NCBI GenBank assembly: GCA_032718475.1
Contig: JAUCBJ010009135.1
Location: 82,626 to 146,625 of the forward strand
Direction: 5' to 3'
DNA: 64,000 nt
DNA from: Nemertoderma westbladi
Taxonomy: Eukaryota; Animalia; Xenacoelomorpha
The notes under the pieces are model-generated. The model made no database searches. It saw nothing but the letters and a program-made list of their open reading frames with translations, and was not told where the DNA came from. The translations under genes and the position numbers were made by a program. This document shows positions 1-49,136 of this stretch, in pieces; within the stretch, counting starts at the first letter, position 1, and every line of letters begins with the position of its first letter.

Positions 1-3000
1 ACTAGCTGGTTCTGGTAGTGTAATGAAATTTTCTCTTTCACTTTCATCACTCACTAAATCTGACATTCCTATTGTTTGAATATATGTGATATACATTGTT
101 CCTGGTTTCAAAATTGAATCATCCATATTAAACATATTGGAGTAAGTCTCTTCATTACAAAGTATGGAATTGTTACAGAGTATCGTCACTAAAAACTTTT
201 TACTATGCCCATCTGGTTTGTCCCATGAGATTAAACCAGATCGAGGAGAGGGAGTATGAATTGTGGGTTTGTCAGGTGGAACTGGTTGAACTGTAAGTGT
301 ATACCATGTTTTATCACTTATAGCATTTCCATATTCATAATAATCTGCAACACAACTAATATTGATATTGTAGTCATTGCCTGGTTCCAGATTAGTTAGC
401 ACAAAGGCAGAATCTTCTTTTGGTATTTTAATATCAGGCAGCCAAATACCACTATCTATTTTACTATAACAAAGAAGCTGAAAATCATGTTTTGATTGTG
501 TTGGTATAGTCCATTTTATGGTATATTCATACCTGTTTGAATTATTACCACTTATATTGAACAGAGGGAGAGGTTTAGTTACAGCAAAAGCATTTGTGCT
601 AGAATCTAGTATGGCTTCTGTGGTAATGTAACAAGATGTAATATTTATTTTATACAAACATCCAGGAGATAAGCGTTCAAAGAGATGAGAAGTGATAACT
701 TCATCGATGGTTGACTCTTGTACATTTTCTCCATTAACTTCATCAATATTAATTTTAAAGTAACTTATTGGACATAATGGTCTCTGCCACTTGACTTCCA
801 TAGAATTTGTTGATATGTTTTCAAATACGATATCAGTTGGTGGAAGAGGCTTTGATGTAACTGATATTTTAACTGGATTTATACAAAACAAGTTCACCAA
901 ACTGTTACAAGATAAAATATTCATAAAATATGTAGTAGATGGTAGACATGCAAATTTGTGATTTGTTTCTCCTATTACAATTCTATCTAATTCAGTGGCA
1001 ATTGTTTCATCATCAGATAATTTTGATAATTCAATACAGAAATTCATATTATCATATATTCCTTTACTAGGTCTATCCCAAGTAAGATTTATTTCGCGAA
1101 TTAAATTGGCATCTACCTCTACTGCATTACAATTTCTCACAGGCAATGGAGGATATTTTAGTTCTCTGATTGTTGAAAAGGCAATATCTCCATTTGTTGC
1201 AAACGCGCCTAATCGGATAAGGTATATGTCTCCAGGTACCAGTTCATCAATACTGAAAATATATGTGACATCATTTATCATATTTGTTGATGATAATTGC
1301 ATGTCACCCCATATAGGACCACATTCCAATTCTGACAAACTTTCATATTTATATTTTCTTAATATTTGACTATCAAAGGTAATGTTGTTAATAGTGCCAT
1401 TTGATTTTGTCATGTAAGATATGATATATTTGTCTACTTCCCAATCCACAGATTCAACTTCAATTTTAATTCGGCCATCATCATTTATTAATATTGAAAA
1501 TTCCTCAATTGGTTCTGGTGGTGTAAATATTTCCAATTTATCACTATAATCACTCATCAATGATTTAAATACTGACCTTACCATCACTTCATACCTTGTA
1601 CCAGGAAGAACTTTCACCAGCATATTACTATCAAGAGCTTCCAATTCTCTGATATCATTTTCTGATGTCATTTGTACTTTATACTTATCACATTTTCCCT
1701 CTGGGATCGTCCAATTAAGTTGAACCTCTCTTGGATCATTTGTAGAGATTTCTGGAATCATTGGAATTGCTGGTGTTGTGTCGAACTTGAAGAAAATTGA
1801 TTTATCACTGACTTGTTCACCAAAGTCATACTTTGCATCATATGTATGGGAAACCTCATAGGAAATTCCTGGAGTCAAGTCTGTGACTTTCTTTTCATTT
1901 ATACATGCAGATTCAATTGTAATTTCTCTTTCTGAATTGTCAGCAATGTCACTTTTAATAATATATAATTTTTGTCCAGTAACATAACTATTCTCCAAGG
2001 GTATGTTTCTCCATTGAATTTTATAAGTTTTATATTCTTCATTAAACCCATAAATTTCTTCAAGTTTCATTGGTTGTGCTATAAATTCTTTATTAGATTC
2101 ATCAAATTTCGGAATAGCTTCTTCATTTCTCTGATAAACTGTTCTTATCCTAATGGAATAAGCAAATCCTGGCCTCAGGTTATCTATTATGTATGAAAGA
2201 TCATTGTATCGCGGTTCCTTTACTATCCATTCTTCCATGTTACAATGTGAGTGATATCTACAATAAGCAATTTCATAATAGCTCACATTACATAATGGTT
2301 TTTTCCAAGAAATGCCCATTGTATTCATTGATATATTGTCAATCTCAATACCCAATGCTTTTGCTGGGCTAGTCGTAAATTCATCTTCAATGGGCTCACT
2401 TTCTAAATTAAAATCATCATTGCAGCTAAATAATTTAATTTTGTATATGGTTGATGGTTCAGGTACAAATGTATATTTTGTATTAAATAATTTCCTGACC
2501 CTGTTATCTTGCCAGATATTATCATTGTTAATATCAATCATTATTCTCAATCTATAACTTTTACATATACCTTGTTCAGGCTTTTCCCACGTAACTGCCA
2601 CCTGCTTGCCATCTGTGGCATTTGTGTCACAGCTAACACCAAGGGAAGACATTATAGTCTTTGTTTCTTCTGTTATCGTTAAGATCCGTGGTGGCAGAGG
2701 AGGATACTCATATAATATGTTATCGCTTAATGCAGATAAGCCGGATCCTGATTTTACTTGAAGCATTAATTTATATATGTTCCCAGGCACCAGAAGCTCA
2801 TTAATATTTTGTATACTTTTGTTATCATGCGAAAACTTTGCTGACTCCAAAGTTTGCCAAGATATTTCATCCCTGCCATCTACCACAGAATCATCCGCAT
2901 TCACATCCATTTCAAATATAGATTCCTGTTTATGGAATTTCAGTTTATATTTGTTTGGACTCCAGTCTAAGTCATCCCAGACTAGATCTTTATTGGGTAA

Positions 3001-6000
3001 AACCTTAAGACCTTTTGGTGCCTCAGGGTTTGTGGTAAATTTGCAATGGGTTACATTTTGACTACATTTATCAGCTGGTCCAATAGTTTGCACTGACACA
3101 ATGTATTCAGTTCCAGGTAGAAGATTGGTTAAATATGATTCAAAGTTACATTCACAAACCTCATAATCTATTTTTCTAGCAATATTTGGTGGGTCAATAT
3201 TTTTCATGAGTGTTACATTAAAACTTGTATAATTACCCTGCAACTCAGACCAACTCCACAAAGCTGTTGCTGATCTTGCTCTAATTGACTCTGATGGAAT
3301 TTCTATACAGCGTGGGGCCTCTGGAAAAACAGAGAACTGGTGGACATCCGATTTGTCACTGTAAACTTCCGGCAGACCATCATGTGCAGCTACACGTTTA
3401 CACCAAACCTTATACTCATATCCAGGTTCCACATCAAGAGTTACAATATTTTCATTACTGGGAATTGATACTGGAACTCTGTGTTCCAATTCATCAATTC
3501 TTTGCAAATAACAAAGTTGTTTAGAGCAGAAATAATTAGACTCTGACCAAGAAATTGTGTGTTTTGAAGTCGAGCAATTATCACCATATGAATTCAATTC
3601 CTCTGGTTTTTCTGGGAAAGTTGAAAATACCAACATTTCCGAATTTTCACTGTTATATATTTTTTTGTTATAATCTTTGTTCACAATTTTGGCATATACA
3701 AATGCTTCATATTGATAACCAGGCAACAGCTTGGTTAGTAAATATGAATTATTGCCAAGACAGTCTTCTATATTATATTTCTTATTATTTATTTTCTCAG
3801 TGTATGTGACAATGTAGTGAACTTCTTCACCTGACTCTGAGTTTTCCCAAACAAGTTCAACATTTTCTGAAGTTAATGAGCCTTCAACAATATTCAATTT
3901 TACTGGCCTTTGGGGACAAGTAAAACAGTTAATTTCCTCAATTGAGCTTTTCACATATTCATTAACAATATCCATTTCTCTGTTCACTTCATTCTCAATT
4001 ATAGTTTCTGTCCAGATTCTTATTACATATTTTGTACCTGGCTTTAATTGTTTAAATTGGTGACTACTTGTTGTACTATCCAAAAATTCATCTGGTTGTT
4101 TGTCAAATTTCACAGATTTCTGATGGTTTTTAACTTGAGCAGCGCCATTCTCAGTTTTCTCCCCAATTCGCAGACCAAACCGAGAAATAAAAGTATCTTC
4201 AGGAATATCCCAAGTAATAGAAATATCATTAGCAGCTGCACTAAATGTTGGTTCCCTTACAGGTTCTGGTAACACTGTATAGTGTAGGGATATAGGGATA
4301 CTAGAAACAGAATCTCTAATATCAATGTAAGCCTGAGCCTCCAGTGTAAATGTGTATGAGTATCCTCTCTGTAAACCATTTACTGTATATTCTTCAACAT
4401 TCCCAATGTCACCAAGGACACCTGTAGGCATATTACCTTTCAATCCTTTATTAACTGGTTTGCAGTTCAAAATATATCCCTTAGTTAATATTGAGGTTGA
4501 TTTCTTCCATGTCAATATTAATGAAACTCCCTCAATTCTGCTACTGAAATCAGAAGGTTTTGCTGGCCGAGTCCAATGAATGGCCATTGTCGGATCAGAC
4601 TGAACATTTCCATTTACAGCAACGACGAAGATAGCATACCATTGTCCCTCTTCCAGTGAGCCATCTGCACCAACTTTAAATAGCTTTCCATCTAAATTAT
4701 CACTTGTGGGTTCGCTATTAACTTCTTGAAGTGTATGCTGGCAACGCTTTAAACAAATATCCAGTGTTGGAGGAATTTTACGACTAATTATCTCATGTGA
4801 AAGAGATTTAGCTAGAATGTGATACACTTCATAATGAGTAACTGATGATGATAAATCCCACTGAACGTCAATTGTTGAAACGTCATGATCACAAATTCTT
4901 ACATTTTCAGGAGGTGGAAGACGCTTTGTCATAAATGTACCTTTAAGTGCTTCAACATTTGGCTTTGTTGAGAGATTCTTACCACTGCAAGCTGTCAATT
5001 TAAAATTATATTTTCGTTTGGGGTCAAGGTTTTGAACTTTATAGGAAGTTTGTCCTTTATTTAAAACTATATTTTCAAGCTGGAGATTGGTTGAAGATTG
5101 GTGATGAAGTTGCGACTTACGAAGCTGATGTGGTGATGATTGACTGGTCCCTTGTCTCTGAAGAATGCGCCTCTTAGTAGGGGATGTTTGTAATGCAGGA
5201 TTATGAGTCTTACTAGACTGCTGAGTATTCGTTTGAATTTGATTAATTTGAGTTGAGTGGCTATGTTCTTGCTGGGAACATTCTAACATATAATGTGTAA
5301 ATTCCCCTCTGTTTGGAGGACACCACTTTAAATCAATAAAGTTTGATCCAATTGTATCTGCTTCCATACCAATTGGCTGATATGCATAAGTATGTTCAGA
5401 AAGAGAAATACAAGCCATTGAAGTTCCATTGAGAATGGAAGACACTGAGATAGTGTATTCCTTACCAGGTTCTAAACCTTCAAATGAAGCTGTATATTCA
5501 TCACTTGCATCTATTCTGCGGAATGAGTTGTGGCTATCAGGAGGTGTTAAGCTTACTTCATAAGATGTAAGCTTTGCTGATGTTTTGTTTGTTGATTTAT
5601 GTATTAAAGCTGCCTCCCATTTAACAATTATTTTTTCTTCTGTCATTTTTTCTGATAAAAATATAACATTCTGAGGAGTCCATAGAGCCTGGAACTCATC
5701 ATTAAGAAGTGTGAAAATCTTCAATGATGCTGGAATTCCACAAGATTGAGCAACTAAGTCAAGAAGAAATAGTATATCTTGGCCCTGGGTGTCATCCACA
5801 TTTTCAATATAAGTGTAATCCGTTTTGCAGATTCGCATTTGTAGCAAGCTTTTGTGTAAATGTGAACGAGCTTTGGAAAAGGTTAAAATGGACCAATCAT
5901 CACTGCAAGATATACCAAATTTTTTGTACACAGCTAATTGTCGAGAAAATGGTCGGAGATGTAATGCAAAACACCAAAATAATGAGTATAAGTTACAGAG

Positions 6001-6771
6001 GAAGTGAATCACAAGGATAAGACACAAGATTATACTTACGTAGTGGTAAAATTTGAGCTGTGTGCTGGAGCATGCGAATTGTAGATTGGTTGCACTTGGT
6101 GTTGATGCAAATGGGTTCAATGGTATGGTGCACAATGCATCGTTATCAATAGTAGTTTGATCGGCAGCAATCCAAATATTAAATCCAAAGATAGAAGATC
6201 CAAATATGATTTCAAATACACTTTTCCACACATATGCTCGGTAAATTTTACTGCTCCTCTTTAAGGATTCACTCATTTCTTTGCACTGTCTTTCCTTCAC
6301 AAACACATCTCCAGCCCTGCCTTCTTCCAATGAATTTAGTCTTCGGGTTGAATCTGCATCAGTACAGTTTAGTGATGGTTCTACAATTAAGTTATAAAAT
6401 AATTCTAGTTTATTTCGGATAGAAGACCTCTTTAAACTAAATTTATCTACGATGAGTAGAAAAAGAGATTCAATTATCATTATGTATGGAAGATATTGTG
6501 TAACAAAATTCAATAAGTCATTTTTGCATTTCCCCTTTGCATAATCCAATATACCATCGCTAATTTCAATGTTTATGTCATCTAAGTGTTCACCCGAAGG
6601 AACGCATTGCATGTCATCTGATGCAAAAAATTTACCTGCAAGCGCAATTAATGAGACAATAAAGAGACCTTTATTTGCGAAATCCTCTATTGTGTCATGT
6701 GTTGCTGTGAAGATCTTGGTGTGAGGACTCTCTTCCCATAATGAATGCGCCAATTCCTCAACAGTTGTCAT
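1..6771 (-). CDS. Pannexin/LRRC8-like 4-TM channel domain fused to a long FN3 repeat array (3' end outside window, >=2257 aa)
   Basis: Hand translation from ATG at 6771 (context ttcaccATG, in-frame stops just upstream): MTTVEELAHSLWEESPHTKIFTATHDTIEDFANKGLFIVSLIALAGKFFASDDMQCVP...YAKGKC...QYLPYIMIIESLFLLIVDKF...KLELFYNLIVE...IYRAYVWKSVFEIIFG...LCTIP...FACS...FYHYVSIILCLILVIHFLCNLYSLFW...DILFLLDLVAQ. FN3 signatures follow (KWE...FEGLEPGKEYTISV, NLDPKRKYNFKL, SWDKPDG...LKPGTMY). All sampled blocks down to base 1 are stop-free, and the ORF track lists no minus-strand fragments here, as expected for one open frame with no stop inside the window. Confidence 0.88.
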   Translation of the reverse strand, partial: MTTVEELAHSLWEESPHTKIFTATHDTIEDFANKGLFIVSLIALAGKFFASDDMQCVPSGEHLDDINIEISDGILDYAKGKCKNDLLNFVTQYLPYIMIIESLFLLIVDKFSLKRSSIRNKLELFYNLIVEPSLNCTDADSTRRLNSLEEGRAGDVFVKERQCKEMSESLKRSSKIYRAYVWKSVFEIIFGSSIFGFNIWIAADQTTIDNDALCTIPLNPFASTPSATNLQFACSSTQLKFYHYVSIILCLILVIHFLCNLYSLFWCFALHLRPFSRQLAVYKKFGISCSDDWSILTFSKARSHLHKSLLQMRICKTDYTYIENVDDTQGQDILFLLDLVAQSCGIPASLKIFTLLNDEFQALWTPQNVIFLSEKMTEEKIIVKWEAALIHKSTNKTSAKLTSYEVSLTPPDSHNSFRRIDASDEYTASFEGLEPGKEYTISVSSILNGTSMACISLSEHTYAYQPIGMEADTIGSNFIDLKWCPPNRGEFTHYMLECSQQEHSHSTQINQIQTNTQQSSKTHNPALQTSPTKRRILQRQGTSQSSPHQLRKSQLHHQSSTNLQLENIVLNKGQTSYKVQNLDPKRKYNFKLTACSGKNLSTKPNVEALKGTFMTKRLPPPENVRICDHDVSTIDVQWDLSSSVTHYEVYHILAKSLSHEIISRKIPPTLDICLKRCQHTLQEVNSEPTSDNLDGKLFKVGADGSLEEGQWYAIFVVAVNGNVQSDPTMAIHWTRPAKPSDFSSRIEGVSLILTWKKSTSILTKGYILNCKPVNKGLKGNMPTGVLGDIGNVEEYTVNGLQRGYSYTFTLEAQAYIDIRDSVSSIPISLHYTVLPEPVREPTFSAAANDISITWDIPEDTFISRFGLRIGEKTENGAAQVKNHQKSVKFDKQPDEFLDSTTSSHQFKQLKPGTKYVIRIWTETIIENEVNREMDIVNEYVKSSIEEINCFTCPQRPVKLNIVEGSLTSENVELVWENSESGEEVHYIVTYTEKINNKKYNIEDCLGNNSYLLTKLLPGYQYEAFVYAKIVNKDYNKKIYNSENSEMLVFSTFPEKPEELNSYGDNCSTSKHTISWSESNYFCSKQLCYLQRIDELEHRVPVSIPSNENIVTLDVEPGYEYKVWCKRVAAHDGLPEVYSDKSDVHQFSVFPEAPRCIEIPSESIRARSATALWSWSELQGNYTSFNVTLMKNIDPPNIARKIDYEVCECNFESYLTNLLPGTEYIVSVQTIGPADKCSQNVTHCKFTTNPEAPKGLKVLPNKDLVWDDLDWSPNKYKLKFHKQESIFEMDVNADDSVVDGRDEISWQTLESAKFSHDNKSIQNINELLVPGNIYKLMLQVKSGSGLSALSDNILYEYPPLPPRILTITEETKTIMSSLGVSCDTNATDGKQVAVTWEKPEQGICKSYRLRIMIDINNDNIWQDNRVRKLFNTKYTFVPEPSTIYKIKLFSCNDDFNLESEPIEDEFTTSPAKALGIEIDNISMNTMGISWKKPLCNVSYYEIAYCRYHSHCNMEEWIVKEPRYNDLSYIIDNLRPGFAYSIRIRTVYQRNEEAIPKFDESNKEFIAQPMKLEEIYGFNEEYKTYKIQWRNIPLENSYVTGQKLYIIKSDIADNSEREITIESACINEKKVTDLTPGISYEVSHTYDAKYDFGEQVSDKSIFFKFDTTPAIPMIPEISTNDPREVQLNWTIPEGKCDKYKVQMTSENDIRELEALDSNMLVKVLPGTRYEVMVRSVFKSLMSDYSDKLEIFTPPEPIEEFSILINDDGRIKIEVESVDWEVDKYIISYMTKSNGTINNITFDSQILRKYKYESLSELECGPIWGDMQLSSTNMINDVTYIFSIDELVPGDIYLIRLGAFATNGDIAFSTIRELKYPPLPVRNCNAVEVDANLIREINLTWDRPSKGIYDNMNFCIELSKLSDDETIATELDRIVIGETNHKFACLPSTTYFMNILSCNSLVNLFCINPVKISVTSKPLPPTDIVFENISTNSMEVKWQRPLCPISYFKINIDEVNGENVQESTIDEVITSHLFERLSPGCLYKINITSCYITTEAILDSSTNAFAVTKPLPLFNISGNNSNRYEYTIKWTIPTQSKHDFQLLCYSKIDSGIWLPDIKIPKEDSAFVLTNLEPGNDYNINISCVADYYEYGNAISDKTWYTLTVQPVPPDKPTIHTPSPRSGLISWDKPDGHSKKFLVTILCNNSILCNEETYSNMFNMDDSILKPGTMYITYIQTIGMSDLVSDESERENFITLPEPAS
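5677..6771 (-). other. Pannexin/innexin/LRRC8-type transmembrane domain (aa ~1-365)
   Basis: Four hydrophobic segments and two Cys in each predicted extracellular loop (C56, C82, C214, C234). Colinear motif matches to LRRC8A as recalled: MIPVTEL~MTTVEEL, KYFPYLVLLHTLIFL~QYLPYIMIIESLFLL, KLEHFVSIL~KLELFYNLI, VYRLYMRQTIIKVI~IYRAYVWKSVFEII, DFAFMLHLIDQ~DILFLLDLVAQ. Confidence 0.8.
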
Positions 6772-6826
6772 GGTGAATGGAATGGGTCGTCAATGTTAGA
6801 GATTTGCTGAACTGCTCAAAATTCAC

Positions 6827-16995: not shown

Positions 16996-17132
16996 CGCCT
17001 TCATTTCCTGTAGTACTATATTGGTTTTGTAGTGATTGGTATTGCTATTGTTATATTATTATTACAATATTGGTATTGTCTGATAGTATAATCTGATGAT
17101 ACTGCTGTACTGTGCAGATTTCGCTTTTGATA

Positions 17133-19703: not shown

Positions 19704-19802
19704 CACAACACATTTTATAATTCTTTGTTCAATTTGTTCGGAAGATTTATTAGCAAGGGTATTTATTATTCTGAACACCAAATATACCAAATGTGTACCA
19801 AA

Positions 19803-33000: not shown

Positions 33001-36000
33001 ATCCTGTACTACTGTATTAGCACTGTGGTGGTTGGAAGAGAGGTTCATTCATCCTGTACTACTGTATTAGCACTGTGGTGGTTGGAAGAGAGGTTCATTT
33101 ATCCTGTACTACTGTATTAGCACTGTGGTGGTTGGAAGAGAGGTTCATTTATCCTGTACTACTGTATTAGCACTGTGGTGGTTGGAAGAGAGGTTCATTT
33201 ATCCTGTACTACTGTATTAGCACTGTGGTGGTTGGAAGAGAGGTTCATTTATCCTGTACTACTGTATTAGCACTGTGGTGGTTGGAAGAGAGGTTCATTT
33301 ATCCTGTACTACTGTATTAGCACTGTGGTGGTTGGAAGAGAGGTTCATTTATCCTGTACTACTGTATTAGCACTGTGGTGGTTGGAAGAGAGGTTCATTT
33401 ATCCTGTACTACTGTATTAGCACTGTGGTGGTTGGAAGAGAGGTTAATTTATCCTGTACTACTGTATTAGCACTGTGGTGGTTGGAAGAGAGGTTCATTT
33501 ATCCTGTACTACTGTATTAGCACTGTGGTGGTTGGAAGAGAGGTTCATTTATCCTGTACTACTGTATTAGCACTGTGGTGGTTGGAAGAGAGGTTAATTT
33601 ATCCTGTACTACTGTATTAGCACTGTGGTGGTTGGAAGAGAGGTTAATTTATCCTGTACTACTGTATTAGCACTGTGGTGGTTGGAAGAGAGGTTCATTT
33701 ATCCTGTACTACTGTATTAGCACTGTGGTGGTTGGAAGAGAGGTTCATTTATCCTGTACTACTGTATTAGCACTGTGGTGGTTGGAAGAGAGGTTAATTT
33801 ATCCTGTACTACTGTATTAGCACTGTGGTGGTTGGAAGAGAGGTTCATTTATCCTGTACTACTGTATTAGCACTGTGGTGGTTGGAAGAGAGGTTCATTT
33901 ATCCGCTGTACTACTGTATTAGCACTGTGATGGTTGGAAGAGAGGTTCATTTATCCTGTACTACTGTATTAGCACTGTGGTGGTTGGAAGAGAGGTTCAT
34001 TTATCCTGTACTACTGTATTAGCACTGTGGTGGTTGGAAGAGAGGTTCATTTATCCTGTACTACTGTATTAACACTGTGGTGGTTGGAAGAGAGGTTCAT
34101 TTATCCTGTACTACTGTATTAACACTGTGGTGGTTGGAAGAGAGGTTCATTTATCCTGTACTTACTGTATTAGCACTGTGGTGGTTGGAAGAGAGGTTCA
34201 TTTATCCTGTACTACTGTATTAGCACTGTGGTGGTTGGAAGAGAGGTTCATTTATCCTGTACTACTGTATTAACACTGTGGTGGTTGGAAGAGAGGTGCA
34301 TTTATCCTGTACTACTGTATTAGCACGGTGGTGGTTGGAAGAGAGGTTCATTTATCCTGTACTACTGTATTAGCACTGTGGTGGTTGGAAGAGAGGTTCA
34401 TTCATCCTGTACTACTGTATTAGCACTGTGGTGGTTGGAAGAGAGGTTCATTTATCCTGTACTACTGTATTAGCACTGTGGTGGTTGGAAGAGAGGTTCA
34501 TTTATCCTGTACTACTGTATTAGCACTGTGGTGGTTTGAAGAGAGGTTCATTCATCCTGTACTACTGTATTAGCACTGTGGTGGTTGGAAGAGAGGTTCA
34601 TTTATCCTGTACTACTGTATTAGCACTGTGGTGGTTGGAAGAGAGGTTCATTTATCCTGTACTACTGTATTAGCACTGTGGTGGTTGGAAGAGAGGTTCA
34701 TTCATCCTGTACTACTGTATTAGCACTGTGGTGGTTGGAAGAGAGGTTCATTTATCCTGTACTACTGTATTAGCACTGTGGTGGTTGGAAGAGAGGTTCA
34801 TTTATCCTGTACTACTGTATTAGCACTGTGGTGGTTGGAAGAGAGGTTCATTTATCCTGTACTACTGTATTAGCACTGTGGTGGTTGGAAGAGAGGTTCA
34901 TTCATCCTGTACTACTGCATTAGCACTGTGGTGGTTGGAAGAGAGGTTCATTTATCCTGTACTACTGTATTAGCACTGTGGTGGTTGGAAAAGAGGTTCA
35001 TTTATCCTGTACTACTGTATTAGCACTGTGGTGGTTGGAAGAGAGGTTCATTTATCCTGTACTACTGTATTAGCACTGTGGTGGTTGGAAGAGAGGTTCA
35101 TTTATCCTGTACTACTGTATTAGCACTGTGGTGGTTGGAAGAGAGGTTAATTTATCCTGTACTACTGTATTAGCACTGTGGTGGTTGGAAGAGAGGTTCA
35201 TTTATCCTGTACTACTGTATTAGCACTGTGGTGGTTGGAAGAGAGGTTAATTTATCCTGTACTACTGTATTAGCACTGTGGTGGTTGGAAGAGAGGTTAA
35301 TTTATCCTGTACTACTGTATTAGCACTGTGGTGGTTGGAAGAGAGGTTCATTTATCCTGTACTACTGTATTAGCACTGTGGTGGTTGGAAGAGAGGTTCA
35401 TTTATCCTGTACTACTGTATTAGCACTGTGGTGGTTGGAAGAGAGGTTAATTTATCCTGTACTACTGTATTAGCACTGTGGTGGTTGGAAGAGAGGTTCA
35501 TTTATCCTGTACTACTGTATTAGCACTGTGGTGGTTGGAAGAGAGGTTCATTTATCCGCTGTACTACTGTATTAGCACTGTGATGGTTGGAAGAGAGGTT
35601 CATTTATCCTGTACTACTGTATTAGCACTGTGGTGGTTGGAAGAGAGGTTCATTTATCCTGTACTACTGTATTAGCACTGTGGTGGTTGGAAGAGAGGTT
35701 CATTTATCCTGTACTACTGTATTAACACTGTGGTGGTTGGAAGAGAGGTTCATTTATCCTGTACTACTGTATTAACACTGTGGTGGTTGGAAGAGAGGTT
35801 CATTTATCCTGTACTTACTGTATTAGCACTGTGGTGGTTGGAAGAGAGGTTCATTTATCCTGTACTACTGTATTAGCACTGTGGTGGTTGGAAGAGAGGT
35901 TCATTTATCCTGTACTACTGTATTAACACTGTGGTGGTTGGAAGAGAGGTGCATTTATCCTGTACTACTGTATTAGCACTGTGGTGGTTGGAAGAGAGGT

Positions 36001-39000
36001 TCATTTATCCTGTACTACTGTATTAGCACTGTGGTGGTTGGAAGAGAGGTTCATTTATCCTGTACTACTGTATTAGCACTGTGGTGGTTGGAAGAGAGGT
36101 TCATTTATCCTGTGCTACTGTATTAGCACTTTGGTGGTTGGAAGAGAGGTTCATTTATCCTGTACTACTGTATTAGCACTGTGGTGGTTGGAAGAGAGGT
36201 TCATTTATCCTGTACTACTGTATTAGCACTGTGGTGGTTGGAAGAGAGGTTCATTCATCCTGTACAACTGTATTAGCACTGTGGTGGTTGGAAGAGAGGT
36301 TCATTTATCCTGTGCTACTGTATTAGCACTGTGGTGGTTGGAAGAGAGGTTCATTTATCCTGTACTACTGTATTAGCACTGTGGTGGTTGGAAGAGAGGT
36401 TCATTTATCCTGTACTACGTATTAACACTGTGGTGGTTGGAAGAGAGGTTCATTTATCCTGTAGTACTGTATTAGCACTGTGGTGGTTGGAAGAGAGGTT
36501 CATTTATCCTGTACTACTGTATTAGCACTGTGGTGGTTGGAAGAGAGGTTCATTTATCCTGTACTACTGTATTAGCACTGTGGTGGTTGGAAGAGAGGTT
36601 CATTTATCCTGTACTACAGTACGTATTAGCACTGTGGTGGTTGGAAGAGAGGTTCATTTATCCTGTACTACTGTATTAGCACTGTGGTGGTTGGAAGAGA
36701 GGTTCATTTATCCTGTACTACTGTATTAGCACTGTGGTGGTTGGAAGAGAGGTTCATTTATCCTGTACTACTGTATTAGCACTGTGGTGGTTGGAAGAGA
36801 GGTTAATTTATCCTGTACTACTGTATTAGCACTGTGGTGGTTGGAAGAGAGGTTAATTTATCCTGTACTACTGTATTAGCACTGTGGTGGTTGGAAGAGA
36901 GGTTCATTTATCCTGTACTACTGTATTAGCACTGTGGTGGTTGGAAGAGAGGTTCATTTATCCTGTACTACTGTATTAGCACTGTGGTGGTTGGAAGAGA
37001 GGTTAATTTATCCTGTACTACTGTATTAGCACTGTGGTGGTTGGAAGAGAGGTTCATTTATCCTGTACTACTGTATTAGCACTGTGGTGGTTGGAAGAGA
37101 GGTTCATTTATCCGCTGTACTACTGTATTAGCACTGTGATGGTTGGAAGAGAGGTTCATTTATCCTGTACTACTGTATTAGCACTGTGGTGGTTGGAAGA
37201 GAGGTTCATTTATCCTGTACTACTGTATTAGCACTGTGGTGGTTGGAAGAGAGGTTCATTTATCCTGTACTACTGTATTAACACTGTGGTGGTTGGAAGA
37301 GAGGTTCATTTATCCTGTACTACTGTATTAACACTGTGGTGGTTGGAAGAGAGGTTCATTTATCCTGTACTACTGTATTAGCACTGTGGTGGTTGGAAGA
37401 GAGGTTCATTTATCCTGTACTACTGTATTAGCACTGTGGTGGTTGGAAGAGAGGTTCATTTATCCTGTACTACTGTATTAACACTGTGGTGGTTGGAAGA
37501 GAGGTGCATTTATCCTGTACTACTGTATTAGCAATGTGGTGGTTGGAAGAGAGGTTCATTTATCCTGTACTACTGTATTAGCACTGTGGTGGTTGGAAGA
37601 GAGGTTCATTTATCCTGTACTACTGTATTAGCACTGTGGTGGTTGGAAGAGAGGTTCATTTATCCTGTGCTACTGTATTAGCACTTTGGTGGTTGGAAGA
37701 GAGGTTCATTTATCCTGTACTACTGTATTAGCACTGTGGTGGTTGGAAGAGAGGTTCATTTATCCTGTACTACTGTATTAGCACTGTGGTGGTTGGAAGA
37801 GAGGTTCATTCATCCTGTACAACTGTATTAGCACTGTGGTGGTTGGAAGAGAGGTTCATTTATCCTGTGCTACTGTATTAGCACTGTGGTGGTTGGAAGA
37901 GAGGTTCATTTATCCGCTGTACTGCTGTATTAGCACTGTGGTGGTTGGAAGAGAGGTTCATTTATCCTGTACTACTGTATTAGCACGGTGGTGGTTGGAA
38001 GAGAGGTTCATTTATCCTGTAGTACTGTATTAGCACTGTGGTGGTTGGAAGAGAGGTTCATTTATCCTGTACTACTGTATTAGCACTGTGGTGGTTGGAA
38101 GAGAGGTTCATTTATCCTGTACTACTGTATTAGCACTGTGGTGGTTGGAAGAGAGGTTCATTTATCCTGTACTACTGTATTAACACTGTGGTGGTTGGAA
38201 GAGAGGTTCATTTATCCTGTACTACTGTATTAGCACTGTGGTGGTTGGAAGAGAGGTTCATTTATCCTGTACTACTGTATTAGCACTGTGGTGGTTGGAA
38301 GAGAGGTTCATTTATCCTGTACTACTGTATTAGCACTGTGGTGGTTGGAAGAGAGGTTCATTTATCCTGTACTACTGTATTAGCACTGTGGTGGTTGGAA
38401 GAGAGGTTCATTTATCCTGTACTACTGTATTAGCACTGTGGTGGTTGGAAGAGAGGTTCATTTATCCTGTACTACTGTATTAGCACTGTGGTGGTTGGAA
38501 GAGAGGTTCATTTATCCTGTACTACTGTATTAGCACTGTGGTGGTTGGAAGAGAGGTTCATTTATCCTGTACTACTGTATTAGCACTGTGGTGGTTGGAA
38601 GAGAGGTTCATTTATCCTGTACTACTGTATTAGCACTGTGGTGGTTGGAAGAGAGGTTCATTTATCCTGTACTACTGTATTAGCACTGTGGTGGTTGGAA
38701 GAGAGGTTCATTTATCCTGTACTACTGTATTAGCACTGTGGTGGTTGGAAGAGAGGTTCATTTATCCTGTACTACTGTATTAGCACTGTGGTGGTTGGAA
38801 GAGAGGTTCATTTATCCTGTACTACTGTATTAGCACTGTGGTGGTTGGAAGAGAGGTTCATTTATCCTGTACTACTGTATTAGCACTGTGGTGGTTGGAA
38901 GAGAGGTTCATTTATCCTGTACTACTGTATTAGCACTGTGGTGGTTGGAAGAGAGGTTCATTTATCCTGTACTACTGTATTAGCACTGTGGTGGTTGGAA

Positions 39001-41632
39001 GAGAGGTTCATTTATCCTGTACTACTGTATTAGCACTGTGGTGGTTGGAAGAGAGGTTCATTTATCCTGTACTACTGTATTAGCACTGTGGTGGTTGGAA
39101 GAGAGGTTCATTTATCCTGTACTACTGTATTAGCACTGTGGTGGTTGGAAGAGAGGTTCATTTATCCTGTACTACTGTATTAGCACTGTGGTGGTTGGAA
39201 GAGAGGTTCATTTATCCTGTACTACTGTATTAGCACTGTGGTGGTTGGAAGAGAGGTTCATTTATCCTGTACTACTGTATTAGCACTGTGGTGGTTGGAA
39301 GAGAGGTTCATTTATCCTGTACTACTGTATTAGCACTGTGGTGGTTGGAAGAGAGGTTCATTCATCCTGTACTACTGTATTAGCACTGTGGTGGTTGGAA
39401 GAGAGGTTCATTTATCCTGTACTACTGTATTAGCACTGTGGTGGTTGGAAGAGAGGTTCATTTATCCTGTACTACTGTATTAGCACTGTGGTGGTTGGAA
39501 GAGAGGTTCATTTATCCTGTACTACTGTATTAGCACTGTGGTGGTTGGAAGAGAGGTTCATTTATCCTGTACTACTGTATTAGCACTGTGGTGGTTGGAA
39601 GAGAGGTTCATTTATCCTGTACTACTGTATTAGCACTGTGGTGGTTGGAAGAGAGGTTCATTTATCCTGTACTACTGTATTAGCACTGTGGTGGTTGGAA
39701 GAGAGGTTCATTTATCCTGTACTACTGTATTAGCACTGTGGTGGTTGGAAGAGAGGTTCATTTATCCTGTACTACTGTATTAGCACTGTGGTGGTTGGAA
39801 GAGAGGTTCATTTATCCTGTACTACTGTATTAGCACTGTGGTGGTTGGAAGAGAGGTTCATTTATCCTGTACTACTGTATTAGCACTGTGGTGGTTGGAA
39901 GAGAGGTTCATTTATCCTGTACTACTGTATTAGCACTGTGGTGGTTGGAAGAGAGGTTCATTTATCCTGTACTACTGTATTAGCACTGTGGTGGTTGGAA
40001 GAGAGGTTCATTTATCCTGTACTACTGTATTAGCACTGTGGTGGTTGGAAGAGAGGTTCATTTATCCTGTACTACTGTATTAGCACTGTGGTGGTTGGAA
40101 GAGAGGTTCATTTATCCTGTACTACTGTATTAGCACTGTGGTGGTTGGAAGAGAGGTTAATTTATCCTGTACTACTGTATTAGCACTGTGGTGGTTGGAA
40201 GAGAGGTTCATTTATCCTGTACTACTGTATTAGCACTGTGGTGGTTGGAAGAGAGGTTAATTTATCCTGTACTACTGTATTAGCACTGTGGTGGTTGGAA
40301 GAGAGGTTCATTTATCCTGTACTACTGTATTAGCACTGTGGTGGTTGGAAGAGAGGTTCATTTATCCTGTACTACTGTATTAGCACTGTGGTGGTTGGAA
40401 GAGAGGTTCATTTATCCTGTACTACTGTATTAGCACTGTGGTGGTTGGAAGAGAGGTTCATTTATCCTGTACTACTGTATTAGCACTGTGGTGGTTGGAA
40501 GAGAGGTTCATTTATCCTGTACTACTGTATTAGCACTGTGGTGGTTGGAAGAGAGGTTCATTTATCCTGTACTACTGTATTAGCACTGTGGTGGTTGGAA
40601 GAGAGGTTCATTTATCCTGTACTACTGTATTAGCACTGTGGTGGTTGGAAGAGAGGTTCATTTATCCTGTACTACTGTATTAGCACTGTGGTGGTTGGAA
40701 GAGAGGTTCATTTATCCTGTACTACTGTATTAGCACTGTGGTGGTTGGAAGAGAGGTTCATTTATCCTNNNNNNNNNNNNNNNNNNNNNNNNNNNNNNNN
40801 NNNNNNNNNNNNNNNNNNNNNNNNNNNNNNNNNNNNNNNNNNNNNNNNNNNNNNNNNNNNNNNNNNNNTACTGTATTAGCACTGTGGTGGTTGGAAGAGA
40901 GGTTCATTTATCCTGTACTACTGTATTAGCACTGTGATAGTTGGAAGAGAGGTTCATTTATCCTGTACTACTGTATTAGCACTGTGGTGGTTGGAAGAAA
41001 GGTTCATTTATACTGTACTACTGTATTAACACTGGTGGTTGGAAGAGAGGTTCATTTATCCTGTACTACTGTATTAACACTGTGGTGGTTGGAAGAGAGG
41101 TTCATTTATCCTGTACTACTGTATTAGCACTGTGGTGGTTGGAAGAGAGGTTCATTTATCCCGTACTACTGTATTAGCACTGTGGTGGTTGGAAGAGAGG
41201 TTCATTTATCCTGTACTACTGTATTAGCACTGTGATAGTTGGAAGAGAGGTTCATTTATCCTGTACTACTGTATTAGCACTGTGATAGTTGGAAGAGAGG
41301 TTCATTTATCCTGTACTACTGTATTAGCACTGTGGTGGTTGGAAGAGAGGTTCATTTATCCTGTACTACTGTATTAGCACTGTGGTGCTTGGAAGAGAGG
41401 TTAATTTATCCTGTACTACTGTATTAGCACTGTGGTGGTTGGAAGAGAGGTTCATTTATCCTGTACTACTGTATTAGCACTGTGGTGGTTGGAAGAGAGG
41501 TTCATTTATCCTGTACTACTGTATTAGCACTGTGGTGCTTGGAAGAGAGGTTAATTTATCCTGTACTACTGTATTAGCACTGTGGTTGTTGGAAGAGAGG
41601 TTCATTTATCCTATACTACTGTATTAGCACTG
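21007..41632. repeat. Satellite array, 50-bp unit, ~410 copies (20.6 kb as assembled) with higher-order blocks
   Basis: Unit gaagagaggttcatttatcctgtactactgtattagcactgtggtggttg; variant-rich flanks and a homogeneous core at ~38200-40768; interrupted by an N gap. Confidence 0.99.
40769..40868. other. Assembly gap (100 N) inside the 50-bp satellite
   Basis: Run of exactly 100 n, a typical placeholder of unknown true length; the same satellite in the same orientation lies on both sides. Confidence 0.98.
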
Positions 41633-44260: not shown

Positions 44261-44266
44261 TTTATT
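44261..44266 (-). terminator. Candidate polyadenylation signal AATAAA of the caspase-WD40-FN3 gene
   Basis: tttatt on the + strand, ~50 nt downstream of the stop at 44319; the AT-rich context lowers specificity. Confidence 0.35.
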
Positions 44267-44318
44267 TTTACAAGCAAACTATACATAGTTATTATTCATA
44301 GCGCATATAGAATATTAT

Positions 44319-47300
44319 CTAGACTGATATAAATGTGAAATCACTGTCTGAGTCTCCAAGTCCTTCTATCACAGATGATGACATCCCTGATTGTACATAT
44401 AGCCTCATTGTTGATATGCAGACATTAATCGCTGCATATTTCTTTGTTGTTTGTTTTATTAGAATTAACTTATTATATGGACTCTCCGATTTGAATATTT
44501 TGTAATAGCTAACATCACATTCTGGTTTATCCCATCTCAAAACTAATTTACCTTGTGGGAACTCCATGTGCTCTATTGTTAAATTGGATGGCTTTAGTGG
44601 CTTTGCAATAAATTGAATGAAAGTCTTTCTGCTAAACTTATCAAGAAACTTGTTGTATGCACATATATTTATAGTGTATACGTGTGAGGGAGCAGTTATG
44701 AATGTGACATGGTTACATTCAATATCAACAACACTTTTTACTTTTGTTTTGGTAGTAAAGCAGTAAATTTCTGCAGTATTATTCACTTGTGAAGATTCGC
44801 CAGTCGGTTTCGCTTGTTGCCAAATGATTTTAGCATTTTGTGTAATACCACCATCATTAGAGTATTCCTCAACCACAGCGTTATAAGGACGCTTTATTTC
44901 TCGTGCAAATCGAATTGTATCTGTATAGGCAATTTCATCTCCATTACTATTCCCAAATCGAACCTCATATACAGTTTCATAGTCATCGAAGTAACTTTCA
45001 AGATTTCTGGTTTCACATCCATTAGTTGCAATAGGTACAGGGCTTATAGTTTTCCATTCCAACTCCCCCTGAGAACGGTACTGTAATATGTATTCAACAA
45101 CTGCCCACGTCGATTTTTTCCATTTTGCAAACACTTTTCCATCTACTTCTATAATTTCAAAATTATCAGGTTGACCGGGCTTTGTAATAAATTCAAGTGT
45201 TACCGCTCTGCCTTTTACATCATTTTCACCGACAGGAATTAATTTAGCTGTATATTTAGTACCTGGTTGAAGGTTTGTTAATGAATATGACTTACAAGGG
45301 AATATGATATATTCGTTGGTTCTCTCGTCAATGATTTCTATATTTACCCCTTTGTAATACCCAGTATTATATTCCCATTGAATGACACAAGATTCCTTGG
45401 TAAGGTCACAGACATAAACATTATCTACAGGAGCAGGCGGAAGGGTAAGCATCTTATTAACATGCTGCCCTTCTTTCATATTATCTTCTGCATGCCAAGC
45501 CAAGCACGAAACACCAACCTTATAACAGTAACCAGGTTCAATTTGTGATAAATTTATTCTGCATTTATTTTCTGTATCTTCCAGTTGAAGAGTTTGTGAC
45601 AGTGGTTCTTCATGAAGCTTACTAACATAGACATTAAAGTGAGAATAATATGAATTCCGATCATTTGGCTTCCGCCATTCTAACTCAATTACTTTTGATG
45701 CAATAAATCTGAGTTGTAGCTCTTTAGGGATTGGTGGTTCTTCGATAAACTCAAAGTCACAATAATTTTTCTTTACATATGTTTTTCCAGTTATGCTATT
45801 AGTTCTATATACCGTCTCAACTCGATATATTGATAGAATTCCACGTGCGGCGTCATTGTAAGTAAATGTTGTTGTATCACTGGATAACCTTGAAGCTGTA
45901 GAAATTATTTGTAAATTTTCACCCTTAGATCCATGATAGATATTATAGTACGATATTTGACAATCTGGAGTGATCCACTTCAAATTTGTTTTTAATGTTC
46001 CATTAGTTGAACTAAATTTTAAATCTTTTACAGGCAGTGGTGAAGACAAGGCTATATGTTCTAAACCTTGACTGAATGCCCCTGATGAACTCACAGAAAA
46101 CACTACCAGCTTGTATAATGTTGATGGTATAACATTTAATTCATATGTTGGATCTGATGTGATTATGTTTTCTGATATTTTCTGATATTCTTTCCCATTT
46201 ATATGTAATCTGAAAACATCGATGCTGTAATGATCACATAATCCCTTAGTTGGTTTCTCCCAGGTAAATGTTATACTTTTATTTTCAGGTTGTGACGAAA
46301 TATTAGTCATCTCAGATATATTACAAGGTGGATTAGGGTTGCAATCAACATGCATGATATCCGAATATTCTATATTACCATATTGAGACAGTGCTCCTAC
46401 ACTTATATCATAAGAGCTACCAGGTGTCAAATATTTATACAATTCTAAATTATGGATTCTTGTTGTAGAGATATCTTTTTTATTTTCTGTACCATCCTCT
46501 GTTATATATTTAAATATGTAGTTTTTAACTTTCCATTTCTGTTGTTTCAACTGGAGAATATTATTTTCAATTCTTATTATTGGGGCAGATGCATTGGTAT
46601 TAAATTCAACATTATTACTTTTGTCACTTTCTTTGTTATATTCTCCAACTGTCGTCATGTATAATATATACTGAGTTCCTGGAGATAAATCATCTATTAT
46701 AAAATATTTAGAGTTCACATTATCAATATTTATATTAATTAATTTAATATTTTGTGATTCTTTTTCTTTAAAATATATATAAACTCCAAGAACCATTGAA
46801 TCGCTATACTCCCACGATATTCTACATGATGTTGCTGAGATATTATCAACAATGATGTTTAAAGGACATATTGATTTCAGATAAAAGGTTCCAACAACTG
46901 AATGTTCACTTTCAACTTCATCCATACCTCTGTATTTTGAGATACTTGTTACAAACCACTTGTATATTAGTCCTGGTCTTAGATCATCTAATGAATATTT
47001 ACTAGGGTATTGTTTTTCTGCATATAGAACCACTAATGGGAAGAATGCGGACATGCTACCTGGTTTAACACAAATCATTTGATGGGTAAACATTCCCTTT
47101 GAAAGAGTCCATGTTAAGTCATAGCTATGAGTATCACATATTACTTGCTGGCTATTTAATTGAGGTTTACATGGTTTGGTTACAACCCTTTGTACAACTC
47201 TGTTAGTCAATATTTCTCTACTTCCAGAATCAAATGCTGATATTGATATTCCATACAATATTCCTGGATTTAAACCCTCTATAGTGTATTCCTTAGTTCC

Positions 47301-49136
47301 TCCATCAATGATGTTAAAAATTTCTTCATTGTTACTTGTATAAATTTCGTTAAATTTCAGTTTATATTCAGTAACTTGAATGGATGTATTTCTAAAGTTT
47401 AAAGTTATTGTTGTAGTTGTTGAGCCTGATATAACCACATGATTTTTTTGTTTCACTGGTGATACTATGCTATTCAATTTGGAATTAGATTCTATCGTTT
47501 TTTCAATATCATATTCTTTAACAAGATTATTGCTCCACGAATTTAGGAGTTTATTTCCCCCAAATTCTATATTGTTGAGATTTACCCTCCCTTCTGCCTT
47601 AATTGAACGAATTGATATGCCAGTATTTACTTCCAACACCTTTATTATTGACCCTCCTCCAATAGCAACTAGATTTCCTTTCTCATGTACAGTAATACAG
47701 GTTGCGCTAATATTTGATTTCCACATCAATTTTCTGCATTCTACATCATAACAATAAACCGACGTGTGTCCATCACTCGATGAGATAATGTATCTCCCAT
47801 CAGGTGTCCATTTGATACTCAGCACAGCCATATTATGATAGGAGTGAGTGTCTAACCATTGTGGTTCTTGGATTGGCACTCCATCTACTTTCCAGATTTT
47901 GATTAGTCTATCTTTAGAACAGGAGGCGAGTTTGCTCCCATCAGGTGAGTACATAATATCGAGTACTGCCTTGTCATGGGACTTCCAAATCTGATTTTTG
48001 ATCTCCGGGTGAAGATGTATAATTGTACTACTCCCATCAGAGTAACATGTCGCAATATTGGAATGATTTGATGGGTGGAATATAATTCTGTGAAGTTTGG
48101 AGGAAGGAAATCTCAGTGAACTTTTTGAAATATTGAATATAACCTCCCAGATGTCATTTAGATTCCATACCAGTATTCGGCAATCCTGTGTACAAGCCGC
48201 TATTCTCTGGCCATTGTGTGAAATGGCGCAATTCGTTACATAAGTTACTCCACCTGGGATAGGTAGATTATCTACCAAATTTCGAGAACATTTACTAAAT
48301 ATTCCAATTCCGTTTGGGCCACAAGTCAAGTAACGCAGCTTATCTGGGAAGTAGTGAACCTCATCTGAATGGATATCGAGATTAAATACAGAAAGTGTTT
48401 GAACAAAGTCAATAAAATTTAAAGATTGCAATAAATTATCAATTACTACTGGTTGTGACGTCATATTGTTTCCATACCTAATAGGTTCAATTTTTAATTT
48501 ACTAAATAGAGAAGTCTTTATGTCTCCATAAGTGTGAGTCTTTAGAATAGTATCGATGGTGCCGCACACAAGATTTACGAATGGAGAGCCCTGATTGCTG
48601 TAGAGAGGGAGTTTTTCACCTGGACTACATCCCATCGCTACTGCAATGTGGTTAAACATTGGATAATTGAGATTTATATAGTTCTCATTCATGTCAGTAG
48701 ATGTTGTTTTTCCTTGACAAGCTTCAATGAAGATGACACGAGGTTTTGGTGGGTTATTTAGAGACAAACATTCATTGGCAAATTTTCTGACGATGTCTTT
48801 TATGATAATTTCTTGCTCATCAGAACAAATGATTGCTCCATATGTTCCATGACCCAAGATAAAAATAAAAAGACATTCAATTTCTCTAAGCATTGTTTGG
48901 TTGCGAAAATCATCCAGGCCATTTATCATATTACTGCGAGTAATTGTGCCATTAAGATGAGGTAAAAAGTGGACTATTTTGCAGCCTAACCCATTTCCAA
49001 ATACCCTATTTATGAAATCAACATCGTGTTTGGAACCAGGATGTCTTGAATTGTCCTTGTAATCCGTGATGTTAACAATCAAACATATCTTGAGACCTTC
49101 TTTGGAAATTTGATATGGATTCTCAGATGCAGCCAT
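44319..49136 (-). CDS. Caspase-like (peptidase C14) domain + WD40 repeats + ~11 FN3 repeats, 1605 aa
   Basis: Caspase: CLIVN..RHPGSKHD..FIFILGHG (H96)..KPRVIFIEACQG (C140)..SPGE..GSPFV..SQP. WD40 (aa ~290-545): HDKAVLDIMYSPDGSKLASCSKDRLIKIW, HNMAVLSIKWTPDGRYIISS. FN3: IEGLNPGILY, LDDLRPGLIY, IDDLSPGTQY, LTNLQPGTKY. No evident signal peptide or TM segment. Confidence 0.93.
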   Translation of the reverse strand: MAASENPYQISKEGLKICLIVNITDYKDNSRHPGSKHDVDFINRVFGNGLGCKIVHFLPHLNGTITRSNMINGLDDFRNQTMLREIECLFIFILGHGTYGAIICSDEQEIIIKDIVRKFANECLSLNNPPKPRVIFIEACQGKTTSTDMNENYINLNYPMFNHIAVAMGCSPGEKLPLYSNQGSPFVNLVCGTIDTILKTHTYGDIKTSLFSKLKIEPIRYGNNMTSQPVVIDNLLQSLNFIDFVQTLSVFNLDIHSDEVHYFPDKLRYLTCGPNGIGIFSKCSRNLVDNLPIPGGVTYVTNCAISHNGQRIAACTQDCRILVWNLNDIWEVIFNISKSSLRFPSSKLHRIIFHPSNHSNIATCYSDGSSTIIHLHPEIKNQIWKSHDKAVLDIMYSPDGSKLASCSKDRLIKIWKVDGVPIQEPQWLDTHSYHNMAVLSIKWTPDGRYIISSSDGHTSVYCYDVECRKLMWKSNISATCITVHEKGNLVAIGGGSIIKVLEVNTGISIRSIKAEGRVNLNNIEFGGNKLLNSWSNNLVKEYDIEKTIESNSKLNSIVSPVKQKNHVVISGSTTTTITLNFRNTSIQVTEYKLKFNEIYTSNNEEIFNIIDGGTKEYTIEGLNPGILYGISISAFDSGSREILTNRVVQRVVTKPCKPQLNSQQVICDTHSYDLTWTLSKGMFTHQMICVKPGSMSAFFPLVVLYAEKQYPSKYSLDDLRPGLIYKWFVTSISKYRGMDEVESEHSVVGTFYLKSICPLNIIVDNISATSCRISWEYSDSMVLGVYIYFKEKESQNIKLININIDNVNSKYFIIDDLSPGTQYILYMTTVGEYNKESDKSNNVEFNTNASAPIIRIENNILQLKQQKWKVKNYIFKYITEDGTENKKDISTTRIHNLELYKYLTPGSSYDISVGALSQYGNIEYSDIMHVDCNPNPPCNISEMTNISSQPENKSITFTWEKPTKGLCDHYSIDVFRLHINGKEYQKISENIITSDPTYELNVIPSTLYKLVVFSVSSSGAFSQGLEHIALSSPLPVKDLKFSSTNGTLKTNLKWITPDCQISYYNIYHGSKGENLQIISTASRLSSDTTTFTYNDAARGILSIYRVETVYRTNSITGKTYVKKNYCDFEFIEEPPIPKELQLRFIASKVIELEWRKPNDRNSYYSHFNVYVSKLHEEPLSQTLQLEDTENKCRINLSQIEPGYCYKVGVSCLAWHAEDNMKEGQHVNKMLTLPPAPVDNVYVCDLTKESCVIQWEYNTGYYKGVNIEIIDERTNEYIIFPCKSYSLTNLQPGTKYTAKLIPVGENDVKGRAVTLEFITKPGQPDNFEIIEVDGKVFAKWKKSTWAVVEYILQYRSQGELEWKTISPVPIATNGCETRNLESYFDDYETVYEVRFGNSNGDEIAYTDTIRFAREIKRPYNAVVEEYSNDGGITQNAKIIWQQAKPTGESSQVNNTAEIYCFTTKTKVKSVVDIECNHVTFITAPSHVYTINICAYNKFLDKFSRKTFIQFIAKPLKPSNLTIEHMEFPQGKLVLRWDKPECDVSYYKIFKSESPYNKLILIKQTTKKYAAINVCISTMRLYVQSGMSSSVIEGLGDSDSDFTFISV

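Follow-up and report, generated by a model that had tools for sequence, protein, structure and literature searches.

An LRRC8-type pore and a caspase-like protein with homologous FN3 arrays, predicted from a putatively linked gene pair of Nemertoderma westbladi

The Locus

A stretch of 64,000 nucleotides from Nemertoderma westbladi (Xenacoelomorpha; assembly GCA_032718475.1, contig JAUCBJ010009135.1, positions 82,626 to 146,625), referred to here as the window, is repeat-rich, animal-type DNA with two long stop-free open reading frames (ORFs) on its minus strand. Gene A joins a predicted large-pore head of the LRRC8 type to an array of fibronectin type III (FN3) domains, and gene B joins a caspase-like domain and a WD40 propeller to a second FN3 array; the two arrays appear to be homologous and to share a five-domain super-repeat in the same phase. 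The stop-free stretch of A covers 1..6789 and is open at the window start; its ATG lies at 6771, with an in-frame stop just ahead of it and a start position that matches that of its relatives. The stretch of B covers 44319..49142, with the ATG at 49136. A reading made earlier from the letters of the window (the sequence-only reading) had proposed that the two genes form a protease-gated pore system. Features are collected in Table 1, and papers are cited by PMC accession.

Table 1. Features of the two genes and of the DNA between them, in window coordinates.
Feature	Position	Strand	Basis
Gene A ORF, at least 2257 aa, LRRC8-type pore and FN3 array, runs off the window start	1..6771	-	ORF, Pfam, DNA runs
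A FN3 6-18, five-domain super-repeat, period ~500-517 aa	10..3915	-	Self-comparison
A FN3 1-5; domains 1 and 2 group with copepod FN3-1/-2, no phase common with B	3916..5679	-	Alignment, tree
Loop of ~70 aa rich in Gln/Ser/His/Thr, inserted in A FN3-2	5062..5274	-	Contig joint 5061-5257, alignment
A aa 1-364, predicted four-helix large-pore domain, LRRC8 fold	5680..6771	-	Sequence matches, model, structure comparison
50-bp satellite, ~410 copies, intergenic between A and B	21007..41632		Repeat analysis
Assembly gap of 100 N within the 50-bp satellite	40769..40868		Sequence; unit and orientation the same on both sides
AATAAA, candidate poly(A) signal ~55 nt past the B stop	44261..44266	-	Sequence
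Gene B ORF, 1605 aa, caspase-like, WD40 and 11 FN3, 3' end complete	44319..49136	-	ORF, Pfam, DNA runs
B FN3 1-11, five-domain super-repeat in phase with A6-A16, period ~471-480 aa	44322..47450	-	Self-comparison
WD40 beta-propeller, B aa ~250-555	47472..48389	-	Pfam
B aa 1-240, caspase-like domain	48417..49136	-	Pfam, alignments
Polypyrimidine tract and AG, candidate acceptor 6 nt before the B ATG, in phase with the ORF	49143..49160	-	Sequence; inference

The Pore Head of Gene A

Pfam assigns the head of A to Pannexin_like (PF12534; 25.4 bits, cut-off 25) and the following part to fn3. The closest PDB sequence matches of the pore are LRRC8C and LRRC8A (E 9e-6), and pannexin is absent from the 32 PDB sequence matches obtained at E up to 10. 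A model of aa 1-470 made from a 66-row alignment (mean predicted local distance difference test score, pLDDT, 83.9) was used instead of a single-sequence fold of the head, whose pLDDT was 38.6; it contains four long helices, two extracellular loops and a cytosolic helical subdomain, followed by an FN3 domain. LRRC8A is the top Foldseek match of this model (E 6.6e-10), and in VIA it aligns with LRRC8A over 277 residues at a root-mean-square deviation of 3.5 (Z 19.4), as compared with Z 14.8 for pannexin-2, 13.5-13.9 for pannexin-1 and 12.7 for INX-6. Both extracellular loops carry conserved cysteines, which are retained in 31 of 36 (C56), 40 of 41 (C82), 63 of 63 (C214) and 60 of 62 (C234) of the aligned relatives that have a residue at the position. 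On the strength of the model, the head is of the LRRC8 type and not of the pannexin type, so that of the earlier label "pannexin/LRRC8-like" the LRRC8-type large pore stands and the pannexin half does not.

The likeness to LRRC8A-E (VRAC/SWELL1, the volume-regulated anion channel; PDB 8dr8, 8dre, 9ezc) extends to the four-helix pore with its cytosolic helical subdomain, the four extracellular cysteines, a short N-terminal helix and the presence of large cytosolic repeats behind transmembrane helix 4 (TM4). However, the structural identity is ~15%, and A has at least 18 FN3 domains instead of leucine-rich repeats (LRRs); FN3 begins right at aa 365, where LRRC8 has its LRRs, and no LRR family is found in the visible 2257 aa of A. 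Because it has no LRRs, A is not an LRRC8, in spite of the resemblance of the modelled pore, and its channel function is a prediction.

In LRRC8 the N- and C-terminus are both cytosolic (PMC9399500). Because this topology places both termini in the cytosol, the FN3 array of A is predicted to be cytosolic, and so is that of B, in which no signal peptide or membrane helix is found; the earlier proposal of cytosolic arrays agrees with this. N-glycosylation sequons occur at chance level (22 vs 21.5 expected, and 10 vs 12) and say nothing about topology. The anion selectivity of LRRC8A is set by a ring of Arg103 (PMC9399500), and extrapolation from the PDB sequence alignment places Asp72 of A at approximately this position; the predicted anion selectivity of A is doubtful for this reason. 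A three-copy complex prediction of the pore domain, in which the alignment was not used, scored 0.00 and carries no weight either way.

The Caspase-Like Head of Gene B

Pfam recognizes Peptidase_C14 (PF00656) in B with an E-value of 2e-20 over aa 16-210, and then WD40 and fn3. The catalytic dyad H96/C140 has normal spacing and aligns with the motifs of caspase-8 and caspase-2, with C140 lying in IEACQG; the linker is short and contains Asp148. The aspartate-binding S1 pocket of caspases consists, in caspase-1 numbering, of Arg179, Gln283 and Arg341. In B, His32 aligns to the corresponding Arg of caspase-9 (Arg31 is adjacent, and a shift by one residue is possible), Glu138 aligns to the Gln of caspase-8, and the third position is presumably taken by Leu178, as placed by its spacing from a caspase motif. 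Judged by sequence, B is a predicted protease with the fold and dyad of a caspase but without the residues that bind aspartate. Because the S1 positions His32/Glu138/Leu178 differ from those of caspases, aspartate specificity is unlikely, and the predicted specificity of B is probably a non-aspartate one.

The same residues raise the alternative that B is a pseudo-protease, serving as a scaffold or an inhibitor in the manner of c-FLIP. All three S1 residues are unlike those of caspases (the third by motif spacing), and the small-subunit half of B has no match among solved caspases at E up to 10; nevertheless, His96 and Cys140 are kept within their motifs at normal spacing and the C14 match is strong, which makes a dead enzyme very improbable.

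C14, WD40 and FN3 account for B, and no P-loop family occurs among the best 25 of the 26 Pfam families matched. Neither NB-ARC/NACHT nor CARD, DED or death domain is present in the visible ORF. Because an acceptor-like AG (49144-49143) stands, in phase 0, exactly at the start of the ORF, B may have a further coding exon upstream; no death-fold ORF was found upstream of B among the ORFs scanned. The sequence-only reading had described a caspase-WD40-FN3 protein and likened it to Apaf-1. The architecture and C140 are borne out, and the analogy is partial: Apaf-1 and NLR proteins similarly combine a repeat region with an exchangeable N-terminal effector, with WD40 standing beside caspase function, but B lacks their NB-ARC/NACHT switch as well as CARD, DED and death domain, and the module that it shares is the FN3 rod.

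A word-index search with the caspase part, made among proteins of 882-2809 aa only, gave no match with E up to 1 in a set of 503 candidates, and the same kind of search with aa 1-600 was swamped by unspecific WD40 proteins of bacteria and fungi. The ESM Atlas returned leads below 0.9 only, including weak ones (0.80-0.81) to bacterial clusters with caspase and WD40. These bacterial fusions, weak leads as they are, resemble B in joining a protease to repeats. No relative with the caspase-WD40-FN3 layout was found in the searches made.

A Five-Domain Super-Repeat Shared by the Two Arrays

With domain boundaries set by hand from matches to hidden Markov models, the arrays contain 18 FN3 domains in A within the window (hence at least 18) and 11 in B. 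They align with each other at 23% identity over 1056 aa (E 8e-35; 134 bits), whereas the match of the arrays to six tails of the copepod type described below does not exceed 54 bits, and that of the B array to solved FN3 proteins does not exceed 33 bits. A6-A16 map onto B1-B11 with the five-domain periods in phase: the in-phase domain pairs of A and B score 54.1 (29 pairs) vs 35.3 for the remainder (114 pairs), a difference that none of 2000 permutations reaches. The result is repeated with a global alignment, and a period of five gives the highest contrast among periods 2-8. A1-A5 show no phase (438 of 2000 permutations). At the DNA level, the coding regions of A and B have no similarity beyond one 38-bp match, and because nothing else is left, the sharing of the array is old.

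The arrays are thus, on the sequence evidence, homologous by descent, with a common in-phase super-repeat, which strengthens the earlier observation that related FN3 arrays stand behind different heads. Derivation of the super-repeat by doubling of the copepod five-domain tail was considered and is unsupported, since there is no phase match. The loop inserted in FN3-2 of A contains no Asp, and an insert is found at the matching place in the copepod relatives.

Pore-FN3 Relatives and the Age of the Fusion

A HMMER search with the A pore yielded 72 relatives. Among the 44 that were scanned, many of them fragments, fn3 is present in 14 and fn3 together with Pannexin_like in 6, and no LRR or caspase family is found. 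An organism is named for 4 of 30 clusters, all of them copepods: Tigriopus (TCALIF_00641), Caligus (QQP57419.1) and Eurytemora (twice, including XP_023335450.1). These pore-FN3 proteins, labelled in the databases only as uncharacterised, FN3-containing or collagen-like, are 800-940 aa long when complete and have ~five FN3 domains and no long array; they are collinear with A from their N-terminal end across the pore and on into FN3-2, at 25-31% identity. A differs from them in its super-repeat, which they lack, and in having at least 18 FN3 domains. In a tree of single domains, A1 groups with copepod FN3-1 (99/96) and A2 with copepod FN3-2 (85/81); in a quick tree of the pore (49 rows, those shorter than 200 aa omitted), the branch of A is long and attaches outside the two copepod clades. 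The fusion of the pore with FN3-1 and FN3-2 is, by these alignments, old, and forms the core common to A and the copepod proteins.

A second clade of invertebrate LRRC8-like proteins (P0140, P0141, P0172, P0179, P0137 and relatives) has a PWWD motif before TM1, a length of 400-580 aa and apparently a single FN3-like domain. Because one of its members is from Eurytemora, no fewer than two old subfamilies are represented in copepods.

LRRC8 channels have been described as a chordate invention in which a pannexin-like pore was fused to LRRs. Lrrc8 has been called a vertebrate innovation (PMC6363415), and Nematostella is the only exception named in the available text of a 2022 review (PMC9399500). 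The pore type of A occurs in non-chordates, namely copepods and the present animal. A word-index search with the A pore among proteins of 1241-3950 aa gave no match among 1868 candidates, the ESM Atlas gave nothing usable for the A head, and viral contigs yielded no relatives. In the literature covered, which left most subscription papers outside and also supplementary domain tables that could list Pannexin_like with FN3, descriptions were found neither of the pore-FN3 family nor of a caspase-WD40-FN3 protein nor of the shared super-repeat. A loose precedent for fusions of an effector with FN3 is a ctenophore TIR2-FN3 gene that is induced by Vibrio (PMC11797021).

Further Copies and Selection

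The genes were traced in three public DNA runs (X1-X3) from two studies. Contigs of all three cover A at ~99.5% identity without frameshifts, and B likewise; in X1 and X2 the contig of A extends 4052 nt past window position 1. Among the contigs listed, none spans the whole of either stretch compared. The data sets listed for gene B include none of RNA, a result that carries no information on its expression. A and B are real genes. A second A-like copy, ~85% alike, is present in X1-X3 and extends over the pore and over some or all of the array; its divergence is strongest in the two flexible loops of A, one of which is that of FN3-2. Contigs of the B region break at identical places in the three runs. 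In X1 and X2, contigs over the middle of the B array (44920-46986) reach about twice the depth found over the head, for which a second long contig is lacking; additional array copies of 78% identity lie on contigs of 3.1-3.4 kb. These observations hint that B-like arrays also occur behind another head or a strongly diverged one. The depth of the caspase-WD40 head (47210-49270), relative to A, is 26 vs 52-59 in X2 and 34 vs 33 in X1; gene B possibly varies in presence and absence, depth being a weak measure of this.

Differences between the window and the runs were classed, each base singly, in 80 of 457 rows (A 40/269, B 40/188); after 8 non-coding ones had been dropped, 72 remained. Synonymous changes make up 30 of the 72, vs 20-25% expected (P 2e-5 to 1.4e-3), no change creates a stop, and the ratio of non-synonymous to synonymous polymorphism (pN/pS) is roughly 0.4-0.5. 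This pattern indicates weak purifying selection on A and B, as would fit live but fast-changing genes.

The Intergenic DNA and the Gap

A and B are 37.5 kb apart, and more than half of this distance is satellite. One long interspersed nuclear element (LINE) and several satellites lie between them, the 50-bp array being the largest; this array has higher-order duplications in blocks of 1-1.5 kb. Further satellite runs are located at 12453-14937 (59 bp), 16271-16996 (68 bp), 17133-19703 (45 bp) and 42681-43167 (71 bp), and the long ORFs at 17051-19728, spurious ones of 880 aa in three frames, are artefacts of the 45-bp satellite. There are two broken LINEs on the minus strand (8091-10890 and 53915-55885), with endonuclease and reverse transcriptase pieces split by stops or frameshifts. 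A BEL/Pao long terminal repeat retrotransposon, also on the minus strand (58514-64000), is spread over several frames with DUF1759, protease, reverse transcriptase/Peptidase_A17 and integrase. Apart from A and B, the Pfam-positive ORFs are pieces of these three elements; among 44 additional ORFs of at least 75 aa, two have Pfam matches, both to retroelement domains. There is no Rfam match in the window.

The sequence-only reading was correct in seeing two co-oriented non-transposon genes with uninterrupted reading frames, the remaining Pfam-positive ORFs all being of retroelement origin, and in placing an assembly gap between them. Its description of both as intact holds for the visible part of A, which is free of stops, but not for the end of A, which lies beyond the window start. 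Seven of the 13 50-bp units on the right-hand side of the gap are variants absent from the left. The join of A and B across the gap is plausible, and their linkage is putative.

Does the Protease Gate the Pore?

According to the sequence-only reading, B is a sensor-protease that meets its effector A through the homologous arrays and cuts the cytosolic part of A, upon which the pore opens. Several features are in keeping with this. The dyad of B is intact, A and B point the same way, only transposon genes were detected in the interval, the arrays match in register and could zipper side by side or dock together, and a flexible loop of A between TM4 and the array (aa 292-326, of low confidence in the model) contains or adjoins Asp291/292/318/326/327. 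There are also precedents: pannexin-1 is cleaved and gated by caspase-3/7 (PMC3928549), and among fungal gasdermins 80% have a protease gene no more than 10 kb away (PMC8851545). Pannexin-1 belongs to the same large-pore superfamily, and A too has a tail in the cytosol for which cleavage is conceivable in principle, but that of pannexin-1 is a short plug, whereas the array of A has ~1900 aa; in any case A is not a pannexin. In the fungal clusters (gasdermin/HET-Q2-like), as here, a protease gene is found near a pore gene, but A is a multi-pass channel and not a gasdermin, the distance is 37.5 kb rather than <10 kb and spans satellite and gap, and neither these clusters nor the bacterial caspase-WD40 fusions have a homologous array common to the partners.

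The evidence from the sites themselves does not support cleavage of A by B, which we regard as improbable. The Asp residues of the loop (292-327) are not conserved in 65 aligned relatives, no conserved DxxD site was found in A, and the FN3-2 loop offers no Asp. A lineage-specific or non-aspartate site is possible; since the S1 pocket of B is not caspase-like, however, the DxxD logic fails to transfer. The proposed check of repeated adjacency gave no caspase near any of 18 related channel loci, a weak test in that only three of these (L005, L006 and L008) exceed 10 kb, all from other lineages, and the lineages may lack B. Cleavage gating is not mentioned in the available text of either of two LRRC8 reviews, and the word "caspase" does not occur in that of PMC9399500. 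Finally, the shared ancestry of the arrays already accounts for the proximity of the genes.

One of the related loci (L008) contains a co-oriented CD39/NTPDase ORF (403-1833, plus strand; GDA1_CD39, E 5e-68) ~8 kb upstream of its pore-FN3 relative, a possible neighbourhood of ATP release and ATP hydrolysis in a single case.

A Proposed Model with Parallel Outputs

The model that we prefer, and to which we give slightly better than even chances, is that A and B belong to a fast-changing modular family in which one FN3 rod is combined with separate heads. In this model, A would assemble as an LRRC8-like hexamer or heptamer whose long FN3 rods replace the LRRs in the cytosol. Because the five-domain phase has been kept at 23% identity, a periodic binding partner is suggested, and the rods may bind such a ligand in register, which could be a filament, a polymer of foreign origin or the rods of partners. 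Initiator caspases are activated by dimerisation, and because the visible ORF of B has no CARD, DED or NACHT, activation by clustering of rods is proposed: B rods gathered on the same kind of ligand would bring the protease to dimerise and switch on, probably with non-aspartate specificity. Binding of the rods of A would gate the pore allosterically, as do synthetic binders of the LRR domain in LRRC8A (PMC9399500). A and B would work in parallel, or else side by side, and their adjacency would merely follow from a local duplication in which the array was copied, which the homology of the arrays makes the simplest explanation. Stress or defence signalling is the likeliest context; LRRC8 carries cGAMP in mammals (PMC8204762).

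It is also conceivable, although we regard it as rather improbable, that the genes have nothing to do with each other. A would then be a volume- or tension-gated channel whose FN3 rod is tied to the cytoskeleton in the manner of titin, B a lineage-specific chimera with a captured copy of the array, and their adjacency historical or an assembly join. FN3 super-repeats of titin match a filament. The copepod pore-FN3 proteins are conserved without a long array (800-940 aa), and the satellite around the gap is one in which a mis-join could arise. Trafficking as well as gating is a function of the cytosolic repeats in LRRC8 (PMC9399500). This explanation, however, does not readily accommodate the five-domain phase retained by both arrays at such low identity, a retention suggestive of some constraint common to the two. 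Much non-synonymous variation together with several diverging copies, the situation found here, is seen more typically in defence genes than in housekeeping channels.

Several points weigh against the parallel-output model. The docking role of the rod is one that we infer, and the conserved copepod family could be a housekeeping channel. The gap sits in a satellite of ~20 kb, in which a mis-join is conceivable, so that the join of A and B is putative. The copy taken as a second A could instead be an allele of strong divergence, the contigs do not show which heads precede the extra B-like arrays, and copy numbers cannot be read from contig depth. In X1, X2 and X3 alike, an intact contig is accompanied by one that lacks a single base at 44469, and some B-like copy is possibly broken or diverged. 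The figures on selection come from the 80 of 457 rows, and the tree of domains is mostly unresolved, with 6 of 36 branches starred.

In a bolder reading, the super-repeat serves as a ruler that aligns pore and non-aspartate protease on a polymer or on each other, after which the protease cuts the pore and opens it. This reading we regard as improbable, to the same degree as cleavage of A by B in general.

Implications

Because the same type of pore carries FN3 domains in copepods and in this animal, the findings suggest that the pore is older than has been described and that its cytosolic regulator is exchangeable. FN3-tailed pores are natural variants for the question of how a cytosolic domain gates pores of the VRAC type. 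B represents an architecture for which no relative was found here and in which the specificity pocket appears remodelled. If the protease opens the pore, a new pathway of cell death or danger signalling would be at hand; if it does so by cleavage along a ruler, A would be the first protease-gated channel of the LRRC8 type, and the locus a genomically paired protease-pore system in animals, with exchangeable heads as in NLRs and no NTPase. If the super-repeat is the receptor arm of several effectors, it would represent a new design for a family of cytosolic receptors in invertebrates.

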